A stretch of 64,000 bases of DNA from Selaginella moellendorffii (lineage: Eukaryota; Plantae; Lycopodiophyta): contig NW_003314333.1 in assembly GCF_000143415.4 (NCBI RefSeq), positions 496,001-560,000 of the forward strand, written 5' to 3'. Of this stretch, positions 48,637-64,000 are shown piece by piece (within the stretch, counting starts at the first letter, position 1; every line of letters starts with the position of its first letter). Position numbers and translations under genes: made by a program. The notes beneath the pieces are model-generated. The model was not told the origin of the DNA. It saw nothing but the letters and a program-made list of their open reading frames with translations, and searched no databases.

Positions 48637-49805
48637 TGTAGTGCACGTGGTTTTGGCCCTTTATCCTATGGTGATTTACCATAGGATAACACCACAAAGC
48701 GCAACCTAAACCCTTTTTGTGCCACGTGACAAATGCCACATGTCACATGCCACGTGTCCAAAGGAACGTGGTGTGGAACCCGAGGTTCAGGGCCTTGGGC
48801 CACTGAACAAAGGAACGGTGCCAAACTTCCAAGCGTGGAGCCAAGGAGTGATGGAACCGAACCATGGAGTAACTCCCGAGCATAAAGCCCAAGGAGCGAA
48901 GGGACAGGAGCCCGGAGCGACTTGGAATAGTCCTAGAGCAACCAACATCCCATTGTCAGGACTAGCACGCAAAATAGGGCCAAACGGAGTCTAGCACTAT
49001 TTTGGCATATTGGTGGCCTAACGCGAGGACATGGGTACTCCACCAGTTAGCATGGAATGAAACTTGGGCTTAAACTCAAGCCAGATGCAGAACAAGGACA
49101 AGCATGCAAGCGGGAACTAGACTATGCATCTAGTTAGTTGGCCATGCCCAACCTACCCACTATCCCTATTATCCATACATTTGGAACCCCCCCACAACCC
49201 CGCCCCCCCCCCCCTCCCCCCCCCTCTTGAGGAACACACGCTTTGAGCTTTCACCCCAAGCGTCCCTTAGTATCAGGAGTTAGTCTCTGGGACAAGCTCA
49301 AAACTTACTAAATATGGAATATCCCTAGATTGTGAATTTTGACATGGGACGAACACCATTGTGTTTAGGACAATCTCTACATTCCGTAGATATGCCAAAT
49401 AAGCAAATCTGGACACTTTCCATAAATAGCATTTGGGACCGAAATGAGACCAACACAAAGGGCATGATAGCGAGGGTGTTTTGGCAGACACGGTAAGCTA
49501 TCATCTAGTGATATTGAGGGACCAATCTCAATATCGCGGGGGTTCTTGATACTAGCAAATGCAAGCCAATGACAGGAGTTTCTCAAACCAGGCCGAGTAT
49601 GCTCAGCAAGAAACACATAGGGTTCCTACCTTATGTTTATCTGATCTAAGTACATGGTCATTGACCAGTTTCTCAACTAGCTCAAGTGGGAAACTGATAA
49701 CAGGTCCAGCAATACTAACCTTCTGCCATCGTGGCAATAAGAAAAGAATATCCGAAAGGACTAGCCGACAGGTAACTTTCAATACCCGAAGTCACATTTG
49801 CAACA
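48637..49805 (-). repeat. 3' LTR of the Copia-derived element
   Basis: Aligns end to end with 61139-62230, mostly transitions. Carries an extra G-box-like unit and a ~60-bp C-rich segment missing from the other LTR. Confidence 0.92.
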
Positions 49806-51012
49806 CTCTCCCCCCTAGGGAAGATTGACATCCTCGTCGATGCACACTCGAGTCTAGAATACCGCCAAGGAAACAACTCTAAAAAATGTTCATGGTATTC
49901 ACACTATCTGAGAAATGCACCAACTTAAATGAGTTAGGAGGCAACCTCTTTGTCTAACGCGGATGCGCTACCAGCTCAGACACCTTCTGGCCGTCGCCGA
50001 CAAGGAAATGACCAACAAAGTTAGCCACCCTTGCTGCTCTGGGAGTCACCCAGCTTACAAAAGTGTGATACGCCCCTGCCCACAGGAATATAGAGAAAGA
50101 AGCCAAAAGCCCCAACCCTCATGAGCAAAGAAACCAAACCCGTCGGTAAGGTTTAGATAGACTATTGTAAACAGGTAGTTAGAGTTGTTTATATGGTCAC
50201 GCCCTTTCAACGGAATAAGGAACATTGACAGAGAGGCGGGTTATGTGACCAATCGATAGTAGCTACCCCATGATTAGAGATTTCAGCATGCACACGAAGT
50301 GCCGAAGCCAGTCTACCCATTACTGGCCCAAACTCAAAGATCAATAAATAGACAATATCAAAGTCATTAGACAATGATATCTTAGAGTCTTAAGTATTAA
50401 TAATGCTTAAATTAGAACACAAAAGTATTCCAAGTAAGTTATCATCCGATAAATTAGTATTATAGTACAGAAACCACCAAGATCATCAATTTTGGAAACA
50501 TAGGATTGAATATCCAACAAAATTCAATAGCTAGTGTATCATCAAAGAAACTCAATGATGAAATATAACTACCAAAGATTGTAGATAGTATGCCAAACAA
50601 CTTACAAAAGATAACTCAAAGAACACAAAGTATCATCGACTGGCAAGCAAAATGCTCGCGAATGTATCACCCGAAGAAAATAACATCCCAATCTATCATA
50701 ACTAACTCGAGCAACAATTAACAGAACAGAATGAATGTTGCAAGACCAACAAACACTCATTCCTACCAACTATTGCACTAGCCAATTTGAATAAATCCTG
50801 GTCAATAATACCAAGAAACTAGAGTTGCTCAAGCAAGTGTCAGCAACATCCTATTGATGTCTAAAACCCAAGAGACCAATCCAAAGCAAACCACAAAGAA
50901 CATGTGGTATTCCAAAAAGCCATAAGCCATCAAAGAGAATAATTAATTATCATGAAAGAATATCAATCATCCCACCAATGAAGAGATGCATAATCATTGT
51001 CGAAGAAACAAT

Positions 51013-52162
51013 TGTAAGCCACAAATTTTTCCTTTCCACTTTGCCAGCTTACCTCGCCTATCCGTCCAACACTGCCTTGGCTTTTGCTAAGTTCCCTCGC
51101 CAAGGTTCTTGCCTATGGTACCAGCTCCTACTTGGTTTCAGCTACTCACTGCACGAGCAACAGAGTGTTAGCCATCCTTCCATGGATTCCCAAATCGCTC
51201 CCAATCCCCCTCCCCGGGTTAGACTGGACTTAAGGTTCGGCTACACTCCCCGCAAGCACAAGCAGCCAAGCACACCAAGCTTCCAGGTTCCTAACCTCCC
51301 TTGGTACCACAAGACTTGATCATGGGACCCTCTAAATCCCAAGTCTTGAGTGCAACACTTGCTTCGGGACGCCGGGGCGAAACACCGTGGCCTAGCGGCC
51401 CGGTATGGGTACCTCTCGCCCCCCACTTCCATCCCGAAGGAAGGCCCAAGACCCTAGGAAGGGCGAGGACCAATGAGCCGCATGGTACTCAAGTGGGGCA
51501 CCACTTCACATGAGCCGGGAGCACCGCAATCGGTTTCCCTTTCGGGAGTGGGAGCTGCTCTTGAGCACTTCCTTGGATGGCCCCTCCGGCACCAACCAAG
51601 TCCATGCTCACTCCCACCCAAGGCCCCTCGGTCCCAGTCCCAACCTCAAGTCGGTTTGGAAGCCCAACTGGAGAGTCCCTTCAAAACTGGTTCCTGGACC
51701 TCACTATCCCTACTATACTTTTGGAACCCCCTGCAGCCCCCCCCCCCCTGGGGAGACGCACGCTTTGGGCTTTCACCCCTTGACCCGTATTAGTATTTGG
51801 ACTTAGTCTCTGGCTCGATCTCGGACCCGATTTCGGATCCGACTTCGGATTCGGGTTCAGACTCGATCACGGACTCGATCTCGGACCCGATCTCGGACCC
51901 GACCTCGGACTCGACCTCGGACTCGGTCTTGGACCCGATTTCGGATCTCGGACTCCGTCTCGAACTCGGTCTCGAACTCGGACTCGAACTCGGTCCCTGA
52001 GTCGGTCTCGGACTCGATTCCGGACTCTATCTCGAACTCGGTCCTAGAGTCGGTCTTGGACTCGATCCTCGACTTGGTCCAATCCGATGAACTCTTTGTC
52101 ATTTCGGTCAAGCTTTTGGGGATCCTTTAGCCTACGACATCTCGGGGAGTCGGTTCCTTACA
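51013..52162 (-). mobile_element. Solo LTR nested in the Copia-derived element
   Basis: TGTAAG...CTTACA ends, TSD ACAAT (51008-51012, 52163-52167). Same family as 62580-63822, whose PBS gives the orientation. Confidence 0.9.
51810..52075. repeat. ACTCGG-based 6/12-bp tandem repeat inside the solo LTR
   Basis: Repeated ACTCGG/ATCTCG/GACCCG hexamers. Confidence 0.9.
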
Positions 52163-52660
52163 ACAATCTACCATCCCGAAGAATGGCAAATCATTCTATA
52201 CCAACAATAATCAAGCAAAACCTTTGATAAGGATAATCAACTATCTTACATGATAGTTAATCATCACCAATGAATGCCAGATGTAAATACTAACTTCAAC
52301 ATCGAAGTTATGAGCTAGAATGCTTTCCCCAACAACTCCTAGCAAATGGCATATTGAGCATGAAATTCAAAGAACCAAAAGCTCAAAGAAGCCTATAGCC
52401 AAGTCATGCCTAGCAATGATCACGAGTCTCACATGAACTAACTTCAATGCTAAAGAAGAAATCATGGTATAACCCACAATATCCTTCACAATACATCCAG
52501 AAACTAAACTTCATAATGCAAAGCTAATGAAGAGTAGATTTGCATCAATCCAAAAACCAAACATAATGAAGTTATGCTCAACAAGTGATCACTAAACAAT
52601 CCTCCATGAATCCATTTATAGCAAGACGTAACTCACTTTATAACAAGCTCAAGAAGAATC

Positions 52661-53254
52661 TGTAAGCTCCTGAGTTTGGACTTCTCGGGAGGTCACCCAG
52701 CCCAGTACTATTCAAACCCAAGGACGCTTAACCCCAAATATCCCAAGACCCTTAACCGATTGGAAAAGGGGGTGCACTCTTATTCATGGGCCCTTTCCCT
52801 CTATATTTGAACCCCATGAACCGTCTCTCAAGTCGTTCTCTTTGGTTGCTTACAATCCACCACGCTTCCCTGCAAGTTCACGCCCTCGTGAACGGAAGCT
52901 GAGAGCCGCAGCTCTCCCGAGAGCCCTGCTCTCTTGACACCCTACCCCTCGGGTCGAGCCCAGCGGGAGCAAACTGGACCAGCCAGATGTCAATCAACAT
53001 GTGGTGTGATTCCCCTAGCCAACCAACAGAGTCGGACCCGAGACCCTCTCTGATACCAAATGTAAGCTCCTGAGTTTGGACTTCTCGGGAGGTCACCCAG
53101 CCCAGTACTATTCAAACCCAAGGACGCTTAACCCCAAATATCCCAAGACCCTTAACCGATTGGAAAAGGGGGTGCACTCTTATTCATGGGCCCTTTCCCT
53201 CTATATTTGAACCCCATGAACCGTCTCTCAAGTCGTTCTCTTTGGTTGCTTACA
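52661..53254 (-). mobile_element. Cassandra-type TRIM with a 5S-rRNA-derived segment in each LTR
   Basis: Two 194-bp LTRs (52661-52854, 53061-53254), identical by eye; PBS TGGTATCAGAG (~53048-53058, minus); PPT-like GTGGTGGAT. The LTR minus strand GGTTAAGCGTCCTTGGG...AGTACTGGGCTGGGTGACCTCCCGAGAAGTCC matches the plant 5S rRNA A-box/IE/C-box region. Confidence 0.93.
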
Positions 53255-54633
53255 ATCCACTTGCCAAAGGAATCCCAATGGAAATGGGAATGGCATAGCC
53301 TAAGCTGCAGAGCATGCAGTTGGAGTGTGGTGACCCAGATAATGATGGAGGTGTGAAAGCACCAAGCAATGAGTTGTAGGACTTGACAACTATGAGGCAA
53401 CTAAGCAAGAGGTGTAAAATAACTGGTTAAACAGGTAGAAGGTAGCTACCCAAGACTTCTTAATAGCATAAGGAAGTTGGACATACCCTTACGGGGGATA
53501 AGTTGCTTGTGTTGCGATATAGTAAGTCAATGTCATAAAAGGAAATACTCATTTTCAAGAAAGCCATCATTGGGACACCCGGACACTCTAGAACACCAGA
53601 AGGTGGTGTTTGATGTCGCGAGGGCAATGGATAAAGCCCAAGGGACTAAGTCCCTAGCGAATGATGGATAGAAGGTGCTATCCAAATGTCCAAGGTTGCA
53701 GAGACAGGAGAGGACTGTCTACCCGAGTTGGACAAAGCCAAAAATGGAATTTTGGCAAGGCTAGTGATGGGCATGTAAAGGCCCATAAGCAACAATGTAA
53801 TCCCAGTGTGTGGGATTATAAGGTGAGCATACCCGGATTGAGGAACCACTCCCTAGGCTATGGGGTAGGTTCATCCCTAAGAATACTTGCTAAAGCGTGA
53901 TAGAAAGTGCAAAGCTATCCTCCTGGTCTGGAGGAGAATGACCAAAGGAAAGGTGTGAAGCCAAAAAGCAAGAAGTAAGGGGATAGAACCGTACCATAGG
54001 AATCAAAGGGCATAACCAAGGTTGGTTATGCCAGCTGGGAGTGGAGAATCAAGTGGGGGCTCGAGGGTGTTGCCGCTAGCAACCGTGATGCCATGGAGAG
54101 TCTAAAATATGGAATTATCCATGTTAGACTATGTGGCATTTTGAAGGCTTGCAAAAAGGGAGGCCTTAGCAAGCTGACGGACAGAGTTCCTTCAAGGTTC
54201 CCAAAGACGATTCTAGGTAGCTTAGTACCTAGAAAGGCCAAGTGTAAATGGTTCATGGAACGCGCGAAATCAGAGTGGTGCAGCAGAAGCGTGGTCTTGA
54301 AGCTTGCCATGAGGCAAGGCTATCAAGGTTAGGGAAGTAGTTCCCGAGTGTTCAAAGAGAGGGCTTTGAACGAAAGTCGATGGTCAAGGACTTTCACGCT
54401 TATGCAGGAACCATGTTACAGTGGTCGGAGGACTTGCCAAGCGAGATTGGCACGTCGGGGGAACAAATACCCTAGTTGAAGGTGATAACTTCAAAAAGGG
54501 TGGGCCATGGGGCCGAGCATGGAGGAGTCCATGCATGATCACAAACATGTCAAGTGAGAGGACTTGGCAGTGTGGAGGAACTAGGTTCCTAAGCTGTGAT
54601 CTATAGCGCGCTTTAAAAATAAGTTGGTGCACC

Positions 54634-55120
54634 GGCGTGGGGAGTCACGCCAGGCATCTTGTGTGATGCCGTCCGTAGATGCATATACGGAGGTTGGGTT
54701 CGAGTCCCGACCCTCTAGTGCTTGGGTTCGAGTCCCAAATCACTAGGGCGTGGTGATGGTTTGGAATATGAGGACACTCATATTTCGGTGGTCATGGACT
54801 CTCAGTGGGGAGACTGGTTTGGGCACACCGCCAAGCGAGGGATGCCTCGGAGTCGTGATGCACGGTTAGATTGCTTAGTGTGAAAGCTCGGCATATCTAA
54901 CTTGAACGCTTTGGTGCAAGTGGCACCAAGGACGTGGTGAGTGAGATGGGGACACCTAATCTCAGTTGCTATGGACCCTTGGCCGGAAGGGCTGGCTTGG
55001 GCGCACCGCCAAGTGTGGGGGATGCCCCCGGGGTCGTAGTTAACAAGTTAAAGGTCTGGAAGACCTAGTACCTATTGGCAAACCTGTTAAGGTGCCGAGG
55101 TGAGATCACTAGGTGATCTT
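54634..55120 (+). ncRNA. Putative structured RNA domain (hairpin array plus two homologous four-way junctions) inside the Gypsy remnant
   Basis: More than a dozen consecutive stem-loops read by hand. Modules ~54748-54863 and ~54930-55044 differ in sequence but keep their pairing. Confidence 0.7.
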
Positions 55121-56429
55121 GTGGCTAAATAAGGACAAGGTCCTTGTTTGGGTTAAGGAATAAGGTTCCTAGTTCAAAGTGTTGATTTGAACTATTGATG
55201 ATGGTGTGGCTTGGTCAAGGTGACCAAGTGGGAAAAGCACCTTAGGGAAATGAGCTATGACATCGCGATGGCATAGTGTGTCCAAGGAAAGTAGTCTCTA
55301 AAGAGACCCATGAGAGGGTCACAAAGTTGGGCCGAGGATAGAGCCCACAGCAGAAGATGCTAAAAGAGACTTACTAGGGGTGAACACCCTAGTCTTGGCA
55401 AAGCAGAGCCTTTGCTATGGAATCAAAAGAATACCTCAAGGAGGGAGGTAGAGATTCGATGTTGCTCGGTGCAACAATCAACGGATAGGAGCAAAAGATG
55501 AGTGGCCAAGATAGGGCCGTGGAATCCCTTGGAAGGAATCCAAGTAACAAAGTTAGGCGAGGAACACTAATGTGTTGGATGCTAACAAGTTGCGGGAAAG
55601 GAAGTGTGTTTCCAAGGGGGGATTCCGAATTGCTCCGATTTGGCGAAAGTGGAAGCTCCACGGGAGGGAGCGGTAAGGTAGCCAAATGATAGGGCCATGA
55701 ACAGCCCTAGCACAAAGTATGATAATTGGAACTTTGGCACGAAATAGAAGAGAGGATGATGGTGCCCTCGAGTAGAGAACTTCCTAGGATGGGAAGTGGA
55801 GTTGCACAAAAGGTGCAAGGCAAGGTGTCGGAGACACCTAAGAAATTGACTCCAAGAAGTCAAAATTCAAAGTTCCAAAGTGCAAAGGTTATATCGATGG
55901 AAATTAAGACTACTCGAGAAGGAGTAGTGGGATTGACTTAGAGAAGGGTCTCTAAGAGGTTTAGCGAGAACTAAACCAATAAAAGGAGAGAACCATTACA
56001 TGTGGTCCAATCAGTCTCTAAGTTGGAGAGACTACGCTCCTTAAAGGATGGACAAGGCATGGTGAGCCTTTGATGTCAAACCATAGACAAAGATTGGCTA
56101 GGTGCCAAGGATGGAAATGGTAACACGTGTGGGTGTCACTTTAGAAAAGGGTTTACCGTTCGATGAGGACATCGAACTTCGTCTATGGGTGGTGGAGTTG
56201 TGAGACACAAAATCCCTAGGCCCCAAAGTGGAGCTGGAAGGGCGCCACATGGTAGTGGCCGAAGCGAGAGCCAAACGAGCGTAACACGTTTGGACCAAAA
56301 GCTCCGACTTGAAAAGTCAAGAGCGGGAGTGGAACTCCCAACGAAGTGCTCGAGGAACGAGCACGAAGCGAGCAAAAGGCGAGACTCCAAAAAGGGACCC
56401 AAAAGGACCAACACATGACACGTGGGAGT

Positions 56430-56835
56430 GTCCGAGATGGACTCGACTTGGAGTCCAAAGTGGAGTCCGAGATGGACCCGAGTTGGAGTCCGAAGTGGAG
56501 TCCAAGATGGACCCGAGATGGAGTCCGAGATGGAGTCCGAGATGGAGTCCGAGGTGGACCCGAGATGGACCCGAAATGGAGTCCGAGATGGAGTCCGAGA
56601 TGGAGTCCGAGATGGAGTCCGAGATGGACCCGAGATGGACCCGAGATGGAGTCCGAGATGGAGTCCGAGATGGAGTCCGAGATGGAGTCCGAAGTCGAGA
56701 CCGAGACCGGGACCGAGACCGGGACCGAGACCGAGACCGAGACCGAGATCGGGACCGAGCCCGAGCCCGAGTCCGAGTCTGAATCCGAGTCCGAGTCCGA
56801 GTCCGAGTCCGAGTCCGAGTCCGAGTCCGAGTCCG
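56430..56835. repeat. GATGGAGTCCGA / CCGAGT tandem repeat inside the Gypsy LTR
   Basis: A 12-bp array followed by a 6-bp array; reverse-complement relative of 51810-52075. Confidence 0.92.
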
Positions 56836-59800
56836 GAGCCTGAGAGGGTGAAAGCCCAAAGCGTTCGTCTCCCAGACCCTGGGGGGTTTGGTGAGCCCCA
56901 AAAGTATAGTAAGGGGGAGGACTGCAGTGGAGCCAGTTTGGCCAGGAAAGGCCAGTTTGGCCCAGGAAGGCCGGACCCAGTGTTGGGTGATGAGCTGCCC
57001 ACTGGGAAGTCCAAGACTAGAGTGAACACGGACCGACAAGCGGGGTAGCTTGGTGAAGTGTTCAAGAGCCGGCTCTAGTTCCCCCGGGAGATCGACTGGC
57101 CGATGCTCCCAGTCCAAGTGTGGGTGGCACTACCTACTTGGATACCAGGCGTGGCTCAATGGAACCTCGCTCTAAGCCCATGGCTAGAGCACCTAAAGGC
57201 GATAGGTGGGGAGAGTACCCAGGTGGCTCGCGTAAGGCCACGGTGTTCCGAAATGTTGTCCCAAAGGCCCAGACTGTGGAAAGGAAGAGGAGCAGTCCTC
57301 TGGGGTAGCGACCAAGGACACAGTCATATGGTGAGGAAGTCCCAGAGGACCGTGGGACTTAGTGGTCGGGCCTGTGGGCCTCGATCCAGTGGCAGTGTTG
57401 GCAAACACGGCCAGGGGCAGAAAGGGACTTGGTAGGAACTGTCAAAGGGACTTTGGGGAAGGCGATTCCCTAGGTCTGTGGGCATCCTAAGGATGCTAAA
57501 GAGTGGATCTAGGATGACCACTCGTGGACACATGGCCCAGTCTTGGAGAGACGAGGTGGTGATGCAAGTGGTGTTGGACCACTAGTGCAGCAAAGGTGAA
57601 TGGGCCTGGCCTTAGCGTAACGGGCCGAGATGTCAGTGGTACCTTTGGGTGTCGGTCTTGGGACCGGACACGTGGAGCACTTGGACCAGGTGCAAGTGTT
57701 GAGTGGCAGGGATGCCATTCTTGGGGCTAGCAAGTCCCAAGTCCTGAATTGGACTGATGGAGGTTGTGAATAAGACTCCTCCAAGTGGTCAAAGGTGTGG
57801 TTAAGTGACTAAAGTAGAATGGAAAATTTAGTCGCTTACAGAATCATCAATGATCGATATATCCTAATGCAAATCCAACAAGGGACCAACATCTTCAATA
57901 TCGATCACTAACTCTTCTTCTTGTAAAGTTAGCATAGTCCAGGGCTAAATCACTTTTCAAGGAAAAACTCAAAGCTCACCCCTACTAAATAATCTTGTTT
58001 AGAACACAACTAATTCAATTTGCCACTCAGTTCATTTGAACATTAATACAGTTGTTAACTAGCAAATACACGAATGCCAATAACACAAAGCCATAGCTAA
58101 ATCATCAACACTATTTTTTCATTAAGACTAATGAAAGTTAATGTTAATCCTAAGGAGAAACATCTCATCTCACTTAAATCTTAACATCAATAATGTCAAC
58201 GACAAAGCAATACTTCAATGCCATCAACACCATAACAAAGCTAGAAGAAAACAAGAGTGAATCACCACTCAAAACCCTTTAGCAACCAAGTTAACCAAAG
58301 TTAAAGATACTTTAGTCAGTATCTGAGACTAATCCTTCAGCAAAACTCAGTTACAGATAACACTTCCTCAAGGAGTGAATCACCACATCCAAGACTCAAT
58401 GAAATCCAACACCACGAACTAAACACAACCAAATGATATTGATAGAAGTAGAGTCGACATGCCAACATGGAAAACCCATGTAAGTCTAACGACACGATCC
58501 TCCACAACACCATTCGGTAAAGTAAACCCATCACTGATAAATCTTCATCGAGTGAAGCAAGTGTCAACAGTCCTCAACTAAGTTTACAAGTAATCATTAG
58601 TTGCAAAGCAACCAACAATCACCCTTCAACTTGCCTTCACAAGACCTAACACTAAACTCATGTCATCAAGTCTCATCCAACATAAACATAATACCTCAAA
58701 TATGAGATAAAGGTTTATGGACAAACATAACAAAATGACCACTTGAATCCAACTCAACCCCAATAAACTCACTAATGCATTTAGCCACTAACTCTAAGTA
58801 TGCCTTGAAGAGGCTAGCTATGCATGATCAACACTTAGTCGAAATTAAAGTGATGACCATGAGATGGATCTATATCGGTACACAACCTCTTTATAGACAA
58901 AGCTATAGTATGGGTACCAACATCTCAACTTTAAATAACTAAGTTGGACATCACCATCCTCAGCCAAGGCACAGGGCTACCAAAACCAAGTCAAGATCAG
59001 TGAGAGCTCACTACTCTCATAGAGTATAATGAAATGCAAGGTGTAACTTGCCACCAAGCATAATACTACAGAAGAAAAGTACAAGGGTCACCTTTCTTAG
59101 AAAAGTGTAACGACCACTTTTCTACACCAACTCCAAACTCTATCCAACTCAATTGCTTTAGCCCCAAAAGTCAGCATCCTTTTCAAGTTGCATCATACAA
59201 ACTATTTACTAAAGTTTAGGCTAACTGAAATCAACTCCAACCCTTTCACTAGTTTGTATTGGCTTACAAAAATAGAATGGTTTTTGGGCAAAGTGATTAA
59301 CAGATTAGCCATTGGAAAAGTTTAAGAAAATTTGTGGAAAATTTCTATCCTAGAGAAAGAATGACTCTCAGTCTAGAAATACAAACTTCCAAAACTTAAC
59401 CAACTTCCTCCTACTAACAACTTCACATAGGTTCACCTCAACACAAATTCTCATAACCCATAGCGTGCTTAAACTCCGAACATCTTTTTGCCCATATATC
59501 CGACATTCAACACTGATATCTGCAAAATGCAAAATGAACATCTAAAGCTTGATCATGAAGACTATATCTTCGGACATCTATATTGCACCAACACTTTTCT
59601 TCAACACTTTCAAGATCCAATGTGAAGCCAAAACACTAACAAGAAAAATGACATGAAAAATCAAGCTTTAAGGAAAATCCTCATCACTTGAAATAATAAT
59701 ACCACTTCCACTAACACAAGTGCTAGTGATGTTAATGCCTCAAACCTCACACCTTTTCCATCCAGCAATTTACTCCAAATGCTAACAGATCAACTAACAA

Positions 59801-61138
59801 GTTATAGCAAATGAATGCTATAACCTTTTTCAACACCTTATGAGAAAACCCTCAAGGAAACAAGGAATCAACTTAAGCTTAGCATAATGGACCACCATTG
59901 AGAATCCAGTCAAAGCTACTACAATGCTACTTCATGTAAGTAGACTAGCTTCACCATTAACCACTTTGGGGTTGATCATCGTTTATCCAAGCAACTTCGT
60001 AAACACATTGCTCATTATCATATGGATATGATATAAATATCACAATGACTTGATCATCAATTGAGCAACATCATGAGCAACACCCATATAATTACTTCAA
60101 AGGTTTATGTGATTATCAAGTGTCAACTCGATTCGACAAAATGCAATATAAATGCCACACTCCACCGATAGAGACTTACAACACCCAACACCACTAACTT
60201 TTTGTTCACAACACGGATAAGCTCATGCCACTCTCTTTCCGACCAAACTTAAAACTAATCCAACACCAAGATACTCAAGGAGCAATAACAAGATTCCTCG
60301 GAAAAGAATTGAGCATTGCAACCCAAATCTTCTAATAGCAAGTCTAAACAAAAATGGTATAACACTTCACCGCTATCCATCCCATGACTCACCACTTGTA
60401 AGATCACCATAACCAATGCATCAAGGTAGGGACTCTTGATTGCATATTGTGAACACAAGCAATGAATCACATTTCGTTGCAAATCATATCTCCAAAGAGA
60501 GAAAATGATTTACGTGTTTGATCCTCCATCCCTAATAACTCTCTTTTTGGTCTCATCTTTGACTAAACCTTAAGCTTGCTTTTGCACTTCCTTCAGTCCA
60601 ATCCAAGAAAATTTTATGAGAGAGCATAGCAATGACTACCTGAACCAATAGACTAATCCCTACAATCTTGATTGATCCACTTGTAATCATGCCTAAGAAG
60701 GATCCACTAGTGTCGTGCTAAACAGCTACGGACTAGCCTATTTGCCACTCATAGCAAACCCAATGAAGGTTTATTTTCACCCATGGTACATGGAACAATT
60801 CACGGAACCATTGGACCAACTCATGGAACCACTACTAGGCTAACATTAATCCTGCTAACTCAAAGTGTAATCTTGAGTTGCAAATGTACCTCACTTACGA
60901 GCCCAAGCTCAAACTCGTGTAAAATGGTACACCTCAATCCTTCTTATGAGCCCAAGAGCAAGCTCATATAATATGATACAACAAGGTAACCAAATCCATA
61001 CCCAAGGAACGATTGCGAAGCCTTTGCACCCAAACGTGTACCCACTTGGATCATCGTTTTCATCTCTACGTATGCAACGAGACTAGTTGCCCAATCTCAT
61101 TGGATAGTACTCGCTAAGACTCATCCTCTGATACCAAA

Positions 61139-62230
61139 TGTAGCGCACGTGGTTTTGACCCTTTATCCTATGGTGATTTACCATAGGATAACACCACGAA
61201 GCGGAACCTAAACCCTCTTTGTGCCACGTGATAGATGCCACGTGTCCAAAGGAACATGGTGCGGAACCCAAGGTTCAAGGCCTTGGGCCACTGAATGAAG
61301 GAACGGTGCCAAACTTCCAAGCGTGAAGCCAATGAGTGATGGAACCGAACCATGGAGCAACTCCTGAGCATAAAGCCCAAGGAGCAAAGGGACAGAAGCC
61401 CGGAGCAACTTGGAACAGTCCTAGAGTAACCAGCATCCCAATGCCAGGACCAATACGCAAAACAGAGCCAAACGGAGTTTGGCGCTATTTCGGCATACTA
61501 GTGGCCTAATGCGAGGACATGGGTACTCCACCAGCTAGCATGGAATGGAACTTAAGCTTAGACTCAAGCCGGACGCAAAACAAGGACAGGCACACAAGCG
61601 GGAGCTAGACTATGCCTCTAGTTGGTCGGCCATGCCTGACCTACCCACTATCCCTACTATACATTTGGAACCCCCCACAGCCCAAGCCTCCCTTAGTATC
61701 AGGAGTTAGTCTTTAGGACAAGCTCAAAACTTACTAAATATAGAATGTCCCTAAATTGCGAATTTGGATACGGGACGAACACCATTGTGTTCAGGACGAT
61801 CTCTACATTCCGTAGATATGCCAAATGAGCAAATCTGGACACTTCCATAAATAGCATTTGAGACCGAAATGAGACCAACGCAAAGGGCATGATAGCGAGG
61901 GTGTTTTGGCAGACACGGTAAGCTATCATCTAGTGATATTGAGGGACCAATCTCAATATTGCAAGGGTTCTTAATACTAGCAAGTGCAAGCCAATGACAG
62001 GAGTTTCTCAAACCAGGCCGAGTATGCTCAGCAAGAAACATATAGGGTTCCTACCTTATGTTTATCCGATCTAAGTACACGGTCATTGACCAGTTTCTCA
62101 ACTAGCTCAAGTGGGAAATTAATAACGGGTCCAGCAATACCGACCTCCTGTCATCGTGGCAGTAAGGAAAGAATATCCGAAAGGACTAGCCGATGGGTAA
62201 CTTTCGAAACCCGAAGTCACATTCGCAACA
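61139..62230 (-). repeat. 5' LTR of the Copia-derived element
   Basis: Adjacent to the PBS on one side and TSD CTTAT on the other. Confidence 0.92.
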
Positions 62231-62579
62231 CTTATGCACAAAAATGAATTAACATGAATTGATACTTAGATTAAGTTTTTGGATTAACTTTCAAAGCCCC
62301 TATAAAATTATAAACTGTTCAATCTTTCTTCTCCAATATTTTATTAGTAATTTCATCATTTCCCCTTCTCTTGATTATGAGCTCCTGACAATTTGAATAT
62401 TTTTATATTAGTGGGTTCTTTGGGTCCTCTTTTTTAGCTCTAGTTAGATTTTGATACTCTATGAAAGTTATATCAAACATTGGAGCAATCTAATATGGCA
62501 TTTGAGTTGTAACTATAGCAAATTATTCAATACTAACAATAGTAATTTTGTTCAAAGTTAAAGATTGGTATGCTGGAAA

Positions 62580-64000
62580 AGATTGATGGCATGTGATCTT
62601 AGGGACTCAGTCTCGGACTCGGTCTCGGACTTCATCTTGGACTCAATCTCTGACCCAACCTCAAACTCAGTCTTGGGCTCAGTCTCGAACCTGATCTTGG
62701 ATCTTGAACTCGGTCTCAGAGTCGATCTTGAACTCAATCTCGAACTTGGTTTCATCTGATGAACTCTTTATCATTCTGGTCATGGTTTCAGGGATTCTTT
62801 AGCCTACGACACCTTGGAGAGTTGGTTCCTTATAAGAACAAAAAAAGAGGCATCTTAGTGAAAAGAGATCTAATTACCTCATATAAGAAATCAATCAGTC
62901 ATATTGCATGGTGATTCAATATCTAGCTTGATTAAGGAAGACATAGAAAGATTGAGTTCAGGATCGAACCCAAGACTGAGTTTAAATATTAATATAGGTT
63001 GTGATGTGAAAACAATCGTCCCACAAAGGGGGGAAGGTTTTTGCAAAGGGTTCCAAAAGTATAATAAGGATAGTGAGGTCCAAGAAATAATTTTGAAGAA
63101 ACTCTCCAACAAATTATTTTATCCATATTTTTAACTGGATGTTAATAAACTATTAAACAATGCTTCTAAACTAACTTAATGTTGAAATTAGGGGCTTGCT
63201 GCCTTGTGTGGGAGTGAGCATGGACTCAAGTGCTACCATAGAGGCCACCCAAGTAAGCATTTAAGAGCAACTCCCACTCCTAAAAGGGAAACCAACTACA
63301 ATACTTCTAGCTCATATGAAATAGTGCCCCACTAAGTATTTTATGACTCATTAGTCCTTACTCTTTCCTAGGGGTTTAGACTTTCCCTTTGGGATGGAAT
63401 TGGGGGAGTAAGGGTACCCATACTAAGCTGTTAAGCCATGGTGTTTTCCCTTGGAGTCCTAAAGCAAGTGATGCATCCAAAGCTTAGGATTTAGAGAGTT
63501 TAATGATTAAGTTTAATTGTATAAAAGGATGTTAGAAACTTGGAGGCTTAGTGTGTTTGGATGCTTGTGTTTGCGGGGGTCTAGTCAAATCTTAAGTTCA
63601 ATCTAACTCGAGGAACGGGATTAAGAGAGAATTTAAGAATCTATGGATGGATGGCTAACACTCCATTGCTCATCTAGTGAATTTTTGAAATCAAGTAGAC
63701 CAAATAGGAGCTGGTACAATAAGTGAGAACTTTGGTGAGGGAATTTAACTAAAGCCAAGGAAGTGGTAGTTGGATAGACGAGGTAAGCTGGCAAATTAGA
63801 AAAAAGAAATTTATAGCTTACAATTTGGTATCGAAGCCTTTTCCTTAGTTTTAGTGAAGGATATAGGCAGATTGCTAGGAGATGGCTAATGCAAGGCGTA
63901 AGAGAACTAAGGCGGAGATAGAACCTCCTTTGGAGCTAGAGTCTTCGGTCGAACAAGAAGCTATAAATGAGGAATCCTTGCATAAGGAGGACTCTAATGA
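62580..64000 (+). mobile_element. Old rearranged 5' LTR, PBS and start of the internal region of another LTR element; runs off the window
   Basis: ~62880-63822 is a CG-depleted reverse complement of 51013-51800, ending GCTTACA and followed by PBS-like TGGTATCGAAGCC (63826-63838) and an open frame MANARRKRTK from 63882. 62580-62833 matches 51850-52162 in the opposite orientation. Confidence 0.8.

Follow-up and report, generated by a model that had tools for sequence, protein, structure and literature searches.

A high-copy LTR retrotransposon of Selaginella moellendorffii, apparently gene-less, carries in its interior an RNA island in which one module, a GACA-loop hairpin followed by a predicted four-way junction, is present twice. 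The duplicated structure is real and well supported by folding models and by comparison of the two copies, and it belongs to no described family. The island is very probably a selected cis-acting RNA signal of some kind. Its most likely function, which we advance tentatively, is as a duplicated packaging or dimerisation tag for the Gag protein of a helper element.

The host element and its coding capacity

The window, the whole 64 kb stretch of S. moellendorffii DNA that was analysed, contains intronless PPR, Exo70 and F-box genes and, from 48.6 kb onward, LTR elements nested within one another. The region 19717-46739 carries a cluster of seven or more long PPR open frames without introns, with an AAA-type ATPase and Exo70 interspersed; the Exo70 protein shows 100% identity to one named from S. 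moellendorffii. The outer member of the nest is a minus-strand element whose LTRs lie near 48637-49807 and 61139-62232 and are 87-93% identical. Nested in it is a composite block (52661-57840) with GAATC on either side, and joints that bypass the block are found in the DNA run X2. The internal segments of the outer element (57846-61126 and 49808-52655) have no detectable protein family or copy of the module and are mildly hairpin-rich (5.2 vs 2.0 per kb).

Within the composite block a Cassandra-like TRIM is fused to the element that carries the island, which is truncated at its 5' end here (Table 1). The TRIM has a Met-type primer site at 53048 and a 5S-like segment (5S_rRNA, E=0.0011; 33.7 bits, under the gathering score of 38). 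The two are joined head-to-head in the region 52661-53260, and GTGGAT is common to the junction and to the end of the TRIM polypurine tract; this, together with the single target-site duplication around the composite, suggests that fusion occurred before integration. The polypurine tract and LTR ends of the TRIM resemble those of the large element, and the two may have a helper in common.

Table 1. Coordinates of the element, its structured island and associated features in the window
Feature	Position	Strand	Description
Cassandra-like TRIM	52661..53255	-	two identical LTRs, 400 nt apart; fused to truncated 5' end
Surviving LTR-element interior	53256..56198	+	2.9 kb; 5'-truncated in present copy
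LTR-end/TGG joint	54446..54465	+	one X15 contig, joined at the TGG of 54448; may be a deletion point, a splice joint or a second primer site
A-box-like 11-mer and three abutting 6-bp hairpins	54625..54691	+	from sequence, hairpin list and folds
T-arm-like hairpin 1	54692..54712	+	7-bp stem with one G-U, loop TTCGAGT; mean pair probability 0.97
T-arm-like hairpin 2 (54722-54738) and 8-bp helix	54713..54748	+	5-bp stem, loop TTCGAGT; pair probability 0.88-0.92
Module 1	54763..54864	+	GACA-loop hairpin 54763-54786, then four-way junction
Module 1 junction	closing helix 54788-54801/54850-54863; arms 54802-54817, 54818-54835, 54836-54849	+	predicted fold
Two spacer hairpins between modules	54864..54930	+	from folds
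Module 2	54941..55045	+	GACA-loop hairpin 54942-54964, then four-way junction
Module 2 junction	closing helix 54965-54978/55031-55044; arms 54979-54995, 54996-55013, 55014-55030	+	predicted fold
Likely polypurine tract	56187..56198	+	by eye; resembles the tract of the Cassandra-like element
3' LTR	56199..57840	+	about 1.64 kb, TG...CA, 12-bp tandem repeat; start inferred by eye

The TG...CA LTR, the tract and the 5-bp GAATC duplication (around the composite block) are those of a non-autonomous LTR retrotransposon. Read depth rises over the 3' LTR, and loose ends are seen at 57840. The 5' LTR and primer site are absent from the window copy; elsewhere in the family a Met-type site appears to come after the LTR end, as read from a loose end at 57840 with an agreement of only 0.45. 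Two related LTRs lie nearby, both with the 12-bp tandem repeat: a solo LTR at 51013-52160 with an ACAAT duplication, related to the 3' LTR of the element, and a rearranged LTR at 62573-63825 with a Met-type primer site after it. At 56430-56845 the LTR repeat keeps frames of 165-312 aa open on both strands, and parts of it are covered in the RNA run X22 by reads from unlike loci.

The preliminary description placed the island between reverse transcriptase (RT) and RNase H relics of a dead pol gene, and no trace of pol is detectable around it. Pfam gave nothing in any of the six frames of the region, a PDB search of all three plus frames returned weak unrelated matches with no RT among them, and phmmer with one frame against 1.84 billion proteins returned no match. 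A profile of 120 gypsy Pol sequences reached a best E of 5.4 for the region, and a frameshift-aware gypsy profile scored 17.5 bits, where 25 shuffles scored 17.6±1.5 and a control, the intact chromodomain-type Ty3/gypsy Gag-Pol element of IMG/VR contig L010:171-4451, reached 1611. Copia was tested through Pfam alone, and a very old or a copia origin of the interior is less well excluded than a gypsy origin. RT-like peptides spotted by eye were rejected: none of 106 candidates had a match at E<=10, the ESM Atlas gave Tc1-like clusters only (below 0.9), and tblastn with an intact gypsy Pol reached a best E of 0.13, on the opposite strand. A retroelement protein was detected neither in the 62 of 119 other ORFs that were scanned nor in 12 further frames. 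With no coding capacity found in the surviving 2.9-kb interior, the element would therefore depend on helper proteins. An IRES-like role, also raised at the outset, is unlikely, no protein-coding sequence being detected downstream; the RNA of a gene-less retroelement must serve only transcription, export, packaging, dimerisation and priming, so that an IRES would have no evident purpose.

Structure of the island and its duplicated module

Perfect hairpins of at least 6 bp are abundant along the interior, at 11.7, 16.1, 14.4 (the island) and 17.1 per kb, compared with 0.8-1.6 per kb in shuffles and 2.2-2.8 in host genes. There are 42 of them in 53256-56117, with purine-rich loops (76% A+G), and 120-nt segments beyond the island reach a folding z of about -6. 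The picture of an island between decayed flanks thus has to be abandoned, since the whole 2.9-kb interior is equally hairpin-packed and has similar depth in DNA runs. The island is special by its complexity (junctions, T-arms, G-U pairs and duplication), not by hairpin density. Among the simple hairpins the excess of G-U over A-C is not significant (4 vs 1, p=0.26), in a comparison that is underpowered.

The hairpins, the two T-loop hairpins and the duplicated module first described are all present, with every quoted stem and loop; the module does occur twice, at a measured length of about 103 nt and not the 115 nt or so originally given. The two copies are repeated with a period of 178, are 72% identical over 93 columns and constitute the only internal duplication of the element interior. 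In a hand-drawn structure both junctions are gap-free, with zero unpaired bases between the four helices. The GACA and GATG loops are identical between the modules, and the 8-nt loop differs at one base.

The base differences between the modules are such that pairing is maintained. RNAalifold on a MAFFT alignment of the two yields a consensus of 34 pairs, of which 7 have changed on both sides and none is disrupted; of 600 column shuffles none matches the RNAalifold energy and 0.7% reach 7 double changes, and the energy is -34.5 on the plus strand vs -18.6 on the minus strand. A hand alignment gives 37 pairs (22 the same, 5 changed on one side, 10 doubly changed, 0 broken), and the same 25 changes placed at random break 9-13 pairs on average. 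The hand alignment was anchored on the loops and junction, and 3 of its 10 double changes lie in the ambiguously aligned outer stem; the automatic figure is preferred because the hand alignment was fitted to the structure. All of these covariation figures come from two paralogues, and within that comparison the conserved loops and compensating stem changes of the preliminary description are borne out. The long closing helix carries 4 double changes and has two bulges at matching places in both modules. By inspection, the helices of module 1 contain 5 G-U pairs and those of module 2 contain 7; three are common to both modules, and these work on the plus (sense) strand only.

Folding energies agree with an unusually structured region: the 511-nt stretch has a z of -6.0 on the plus strand and -7.8 on the minus strand, and 0 of 100 shuffles are as low on either. 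Module 1 alone reaches -4.2 on the plus and -1.5 on the minus strand, and module 2 alone -2.25 and -0.5. In context, the mean pair probabilities of the junction helices are 0.01-0.44 in module 2 vs 0.56-0.91 in module 1, and the module 2 cloverleaf is not the dominant thermodynamic fold. Given the weak z and the low junction probabilities, it rests on homology more than on energy. At least one copy variant falls within the modules (55002 C>T, among 40 of 496 variant rows), and it is in a loop. We note that a conserved TGGTG precedes each module and could form a 5-bp pairing with the 8-nt loop; this pairing shows no covariation and is a lead only.

The window contains no third module by a search with a weak, two-sequence module model, R1 (best other E=1.3). 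Rfam returned no match at E<=10 on 54600-55150, and outside the island three chance-level matches only. As first reported, a hammerhead core is lacking: there are 26 CTGANGA matches in the window and none within the element. A hairpin-ribozyme reading was dropped since the catalytic loops are absent, and so was a tRNA-Val-like anticodon loop, on which the two modules disagree; both were judged by eye.

Upstream of the modules, the three abutting hairpins (54634-54651, 54653-54670 and 54672-54691) follow an A-box-like 11-mer at 54625-54635, a weak pattern with 123 such matches across the window. Directly 5' of the island, at 54611-54621, is an A-rich tract, a length-variable linker that is 26 nt longer in a contig from run X15. 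The two T-arm-like hairpins that come next have no counterpart elsewhere in the window, on either strand. The sequence GGTTCGAGTCCC is likewise found only twice in the 64 kb, and 0 of 100 shuffles reach two. Both hairpins double as strict Pol III B-boxes, the only two in the window, and the second is stacked on the 8-bp helix to give a 13-bp, acceptor/T minihelix-like structure. As to the proposed tRNA mimic, the two T-arm-like hairpins are real and a mimic of a whole tRNA is not supported: ARAGORN finds 0 genes, Rfam gives no match, and there is no acceptor end or whole tRNA fold.

Genomic copies, transcripts and relationship to known systems

Eleven low-depth runs of one sample contain 78-81% of the sampled words, and in two DNA-type runs the interior depth is very high and fairly even; because some 80% of words are present in the low-depth runs and coverage in the DNA runs is deep and even, the family is high-copy. 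A total of 203,264 records of X2 were matched to the element, a depth that gives no copy number. In X5, a low-depth run of a different sample, one contig corresponds to 54619-54847 with 0 differences in 229 nt. At least 17 interior variants are found among 40 of the 496 rows. In the local fold 11 of these 17 fall on unpaired bases, 4 leave a pair intact and 2 disrupt one; the expected unpaired share is 37.5% (p=0.02 for the excess), and this lends weak support to the structure.

Run X15, taken by guess to be RNA-type, has no depth on 53164-54309. One contig of 2580 nt consists of the LTR, two letters and then 54448-55963, with everything 5' of 54448 absent and the island kept. This shows that there is a shorter, island-bearing form, possibly one that is transcribed. 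The 57840/54448 joint would correspond to a variant with a 1.75-kb interior and a possible non-Met primer site. No such joint was found in X2, which was counted in part, or in X5. Canonical splicing at the joint was dropped, as no fitting donor and acceptor were seen by eye. In the raw RNA run X22 the mean interior depth is at most 0.8, and of 9.2 million records 349 match anywhere in the 5.7 kb; to judge from this sample, most copies are not transcribed. The run index lists no RNA run as a holder, which speaks neither for nor against transcription.

Several known systems resemble parts of the island. The core encapsidation signal of gammaretroviruses consists of tandem GACG-loop hairpins and shares with the modules redundant stem-loops and conserved GAC(N) tetraloops; the element differs in that its GACA loop is followed by a four-way junction, has no Rfam match at E<=10 and, in this copy, is not directly behind the primer site. 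The tRNA T-arm and the heads of tRNA-derived SINEs are alike in the two exact TTCGAGT loops closed by G-C and in the B-box sequence, and differ in that the element has no whole tRNA, 3' A-tail or clear target-site duplication and has an A-to-B spacing of 72 nt. The MusD MTE and MLV PTE, as presented in the portions of PMC5767303 at hand, are also internal, multibranch, cis-acting RNAs of LTR retroelements, but they belong to animal elements, have no T-arms described there and show no sequence or Rfam match to the island, whose role is predicted.

Among plant elements, LARDs (e.g. Sukkula) and TRIMs are LTR elements with a non-coding interior, dependence on a helper and conserved predicted RNA structure, according to the available parts of PMC7215508 and PMC9033089. 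LARD interiors exceed 4 kb (PMC9033089, same limit); the 2.9 kb that survives in this truncated copy and the 1.75 kb of the X15 form are shorter, but the LTR, at 1.6 kb, is long. Neither a duplicated four-way-junction module nor T-arms are named in the accessible text of these two sources. Retrozymes are non-autonomous plant LTR elements with a highly paired, ramified interior (PMC4918200, in part); the element is much larger and lacks a hammerhead core, and no hammerhead ribozyme of the kind that marks retrozymes is present in its LTRs. SM1- and SM2-Galahad of S. moellendorffii, as far as the excerpted PMC3350952 describes them, likewise number in the hundreds and have a Met primer site and LTRs that measure some 1 kb or more and end in TG...CA; SM1-Galahad has poly-G tracts, and the related LTRs in the window have G/C runs. 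Galahad elements encode Gag-Pol (same source and limit), unlike the element, which has no detectable Gag-Pol, and they are candidate helpers, compared by description only.

Pattern scans for relatives yielded 7 viral loci, 1 metagenome locus with a bacterial-type frame and 1 Curtobacterium locus, together with 60 viral loci with two T-loop words, all judged chance matches. Among the 70 loci from the viral, metagenome and prokaryote scans none matches R1 at E<=1 and none matches the element by blastn, as expected of a plant repeat.

Function of the island

The earlier proposal of a selected plus-strand cis-acting RNA belonging to a parasitic LTR retroelement is supported by the compensated stems and the strand bias; Rfam has no match to it. 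Stems that change in compensation while their loops stay the same suggest a fold that binds a ligand. That precisely this unit is duplicated hints at selection for avidity, as competition for helper Gag would bring about. We suggest that the fold would form in vivo and be read as RNA, with Gag or nucleocapsid as the candidate reader: the two modules and the T-arm look-alikes would give helper Gag two binding platforms, and the bound parasite RNA would be packaged and reverse-transcribed by helper particles. Duplication may have raised avidity in competition with the RNA of the helper itself, and the surrounding plain hairpins may compact the RNA and expose their purine-rich loops. LARDs and TRIMs, non-coding elements with conserved RNA structures, provide a precedent for dependence on helpers in the parts of PMC7215508 at hand. 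The position of the island does not sit easily with packaging. The likely polypurine tract is 1.15-1.57 kb further downstream, and in this copy the 5' break is no closer than 1.4 kb. Retroviral packaging signals usually follow directly after the primer site, and the internal position counts against packaging for that reason. Nor is a dimerisation palindrome evident, as the conserved module loops are not self-complementary in this copy.

This internal position, away from the primer site, is more readily accommodated by the main rival to a Gag-binding tag, a nuclear-export (RNA transport) element. Here the junctions and T-arms would recruit host export factors for the unspliced RNA, possibly by the tRNA route, as in the MusD MTE. 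The complex multibranch fold is of the MTE and PTE kind (PMC5767303, in the portions available), and the two canonical T-loops, unique in 64 kb and one of them on a 13-bp minihelix-like stack, fit as well. We nevertheless regard export as a rather doubtful explanation, since the island matches no known transport element in sequence or Rfam family, an acceptor end and whole tRNA fold are lacking, and the duplication covers the junction module and not the T-arm block.

The hairpin density of the whole interior, together with the avoidance of stems by variants throughout, would also be accounted for if the modules had no specific ligand and were part of a compact fold selected generally, for stability, evasion of small-RNA silencing or fit to the particle, with compensation preserving bulk pairing. 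Retrozyme RNAs, in what is available of PMC4918200, are likewise about 70% paired in ramified hairpins. Such a fold, like a packaging or an export signal, would still count as a selected cis-acting RNA. General compaction leaves the identical loops, the bulges at the same places, the two gap-free junctions and the two exact T-loops unexplained, and is improbable.

Still less probable is a signal at the level of DNA, in which the T-loops act as Pol III B-boxes (TFIIIC sites) in an internal promoter or chromatin barrier and the downstream RNA is a Pol III transcript. The only two strict B-boxes of the window do lie here, with the A-box-like 11-mer 72 nt upstream, and no TTTT occurs on the plus strand across 54143-57953 (3.8 kb; about 4.5 expected from composition, a post hoc observation); the fused Cassandra-like element illustrates Pol III promoters in such parasites (PMC7215508, in part). 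Yet both boxes are within stems of 5-7 bp, accompanied by further G-U helices that would be superfluous in a DNA box, loose A-box matches are frequent in the window, the junction modules are left unexplained, and a short RNA start was looked for in the runs and none was seen. Neutral template switching, an error-prone copying that makes and perfects inverted repeats and so might mimic compensation after duplication, is able to generate perfect stems as well as compensations of several bases (bioRxiv 10.1101/2021.04.15.439925, in the part seen) and would suit the simple hairpins, most of which are perfectly Watson-Crick and fold on both strands, but it gives Watson-Crick pairs only and is very unlikely in view of the three G-U pairs common to the modules, the strand-biased fold, the conserved loops and changes that span long-range closing helices.

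The common assumption about gene-less LTR elements is that helpers carry them along (PMC7215508 and PMC9033089, as far as available). In the literature covered, with subscription papers mostly outside it, we found no description of the RNA signal that gene-less plant LTR elements use, or of the module. We therefore put forward, with some reserve, the possibility of an undescribed RNA family, in which a gap-free four-way-junction module with fixed loops and a pair of T-arm mimics would hand the RNA of a lycophyte LTR retrotransposon either to Gag or to the export route taken by tRNAs, and in which the parasite, by doubling the module and raising a wall of hairpins, would out-compete its helper. 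If so, plant retrotransposons would have a packaging or export signal that is defined by sequence and open to direct testing. A module of about 100 nt that is present twice with built-in compensatory pairs lends itself to SHAPE and to assays of Gag binding and export, and it would make the choice of plant retrotransposon RNA for packaging or export accessible to experiment.
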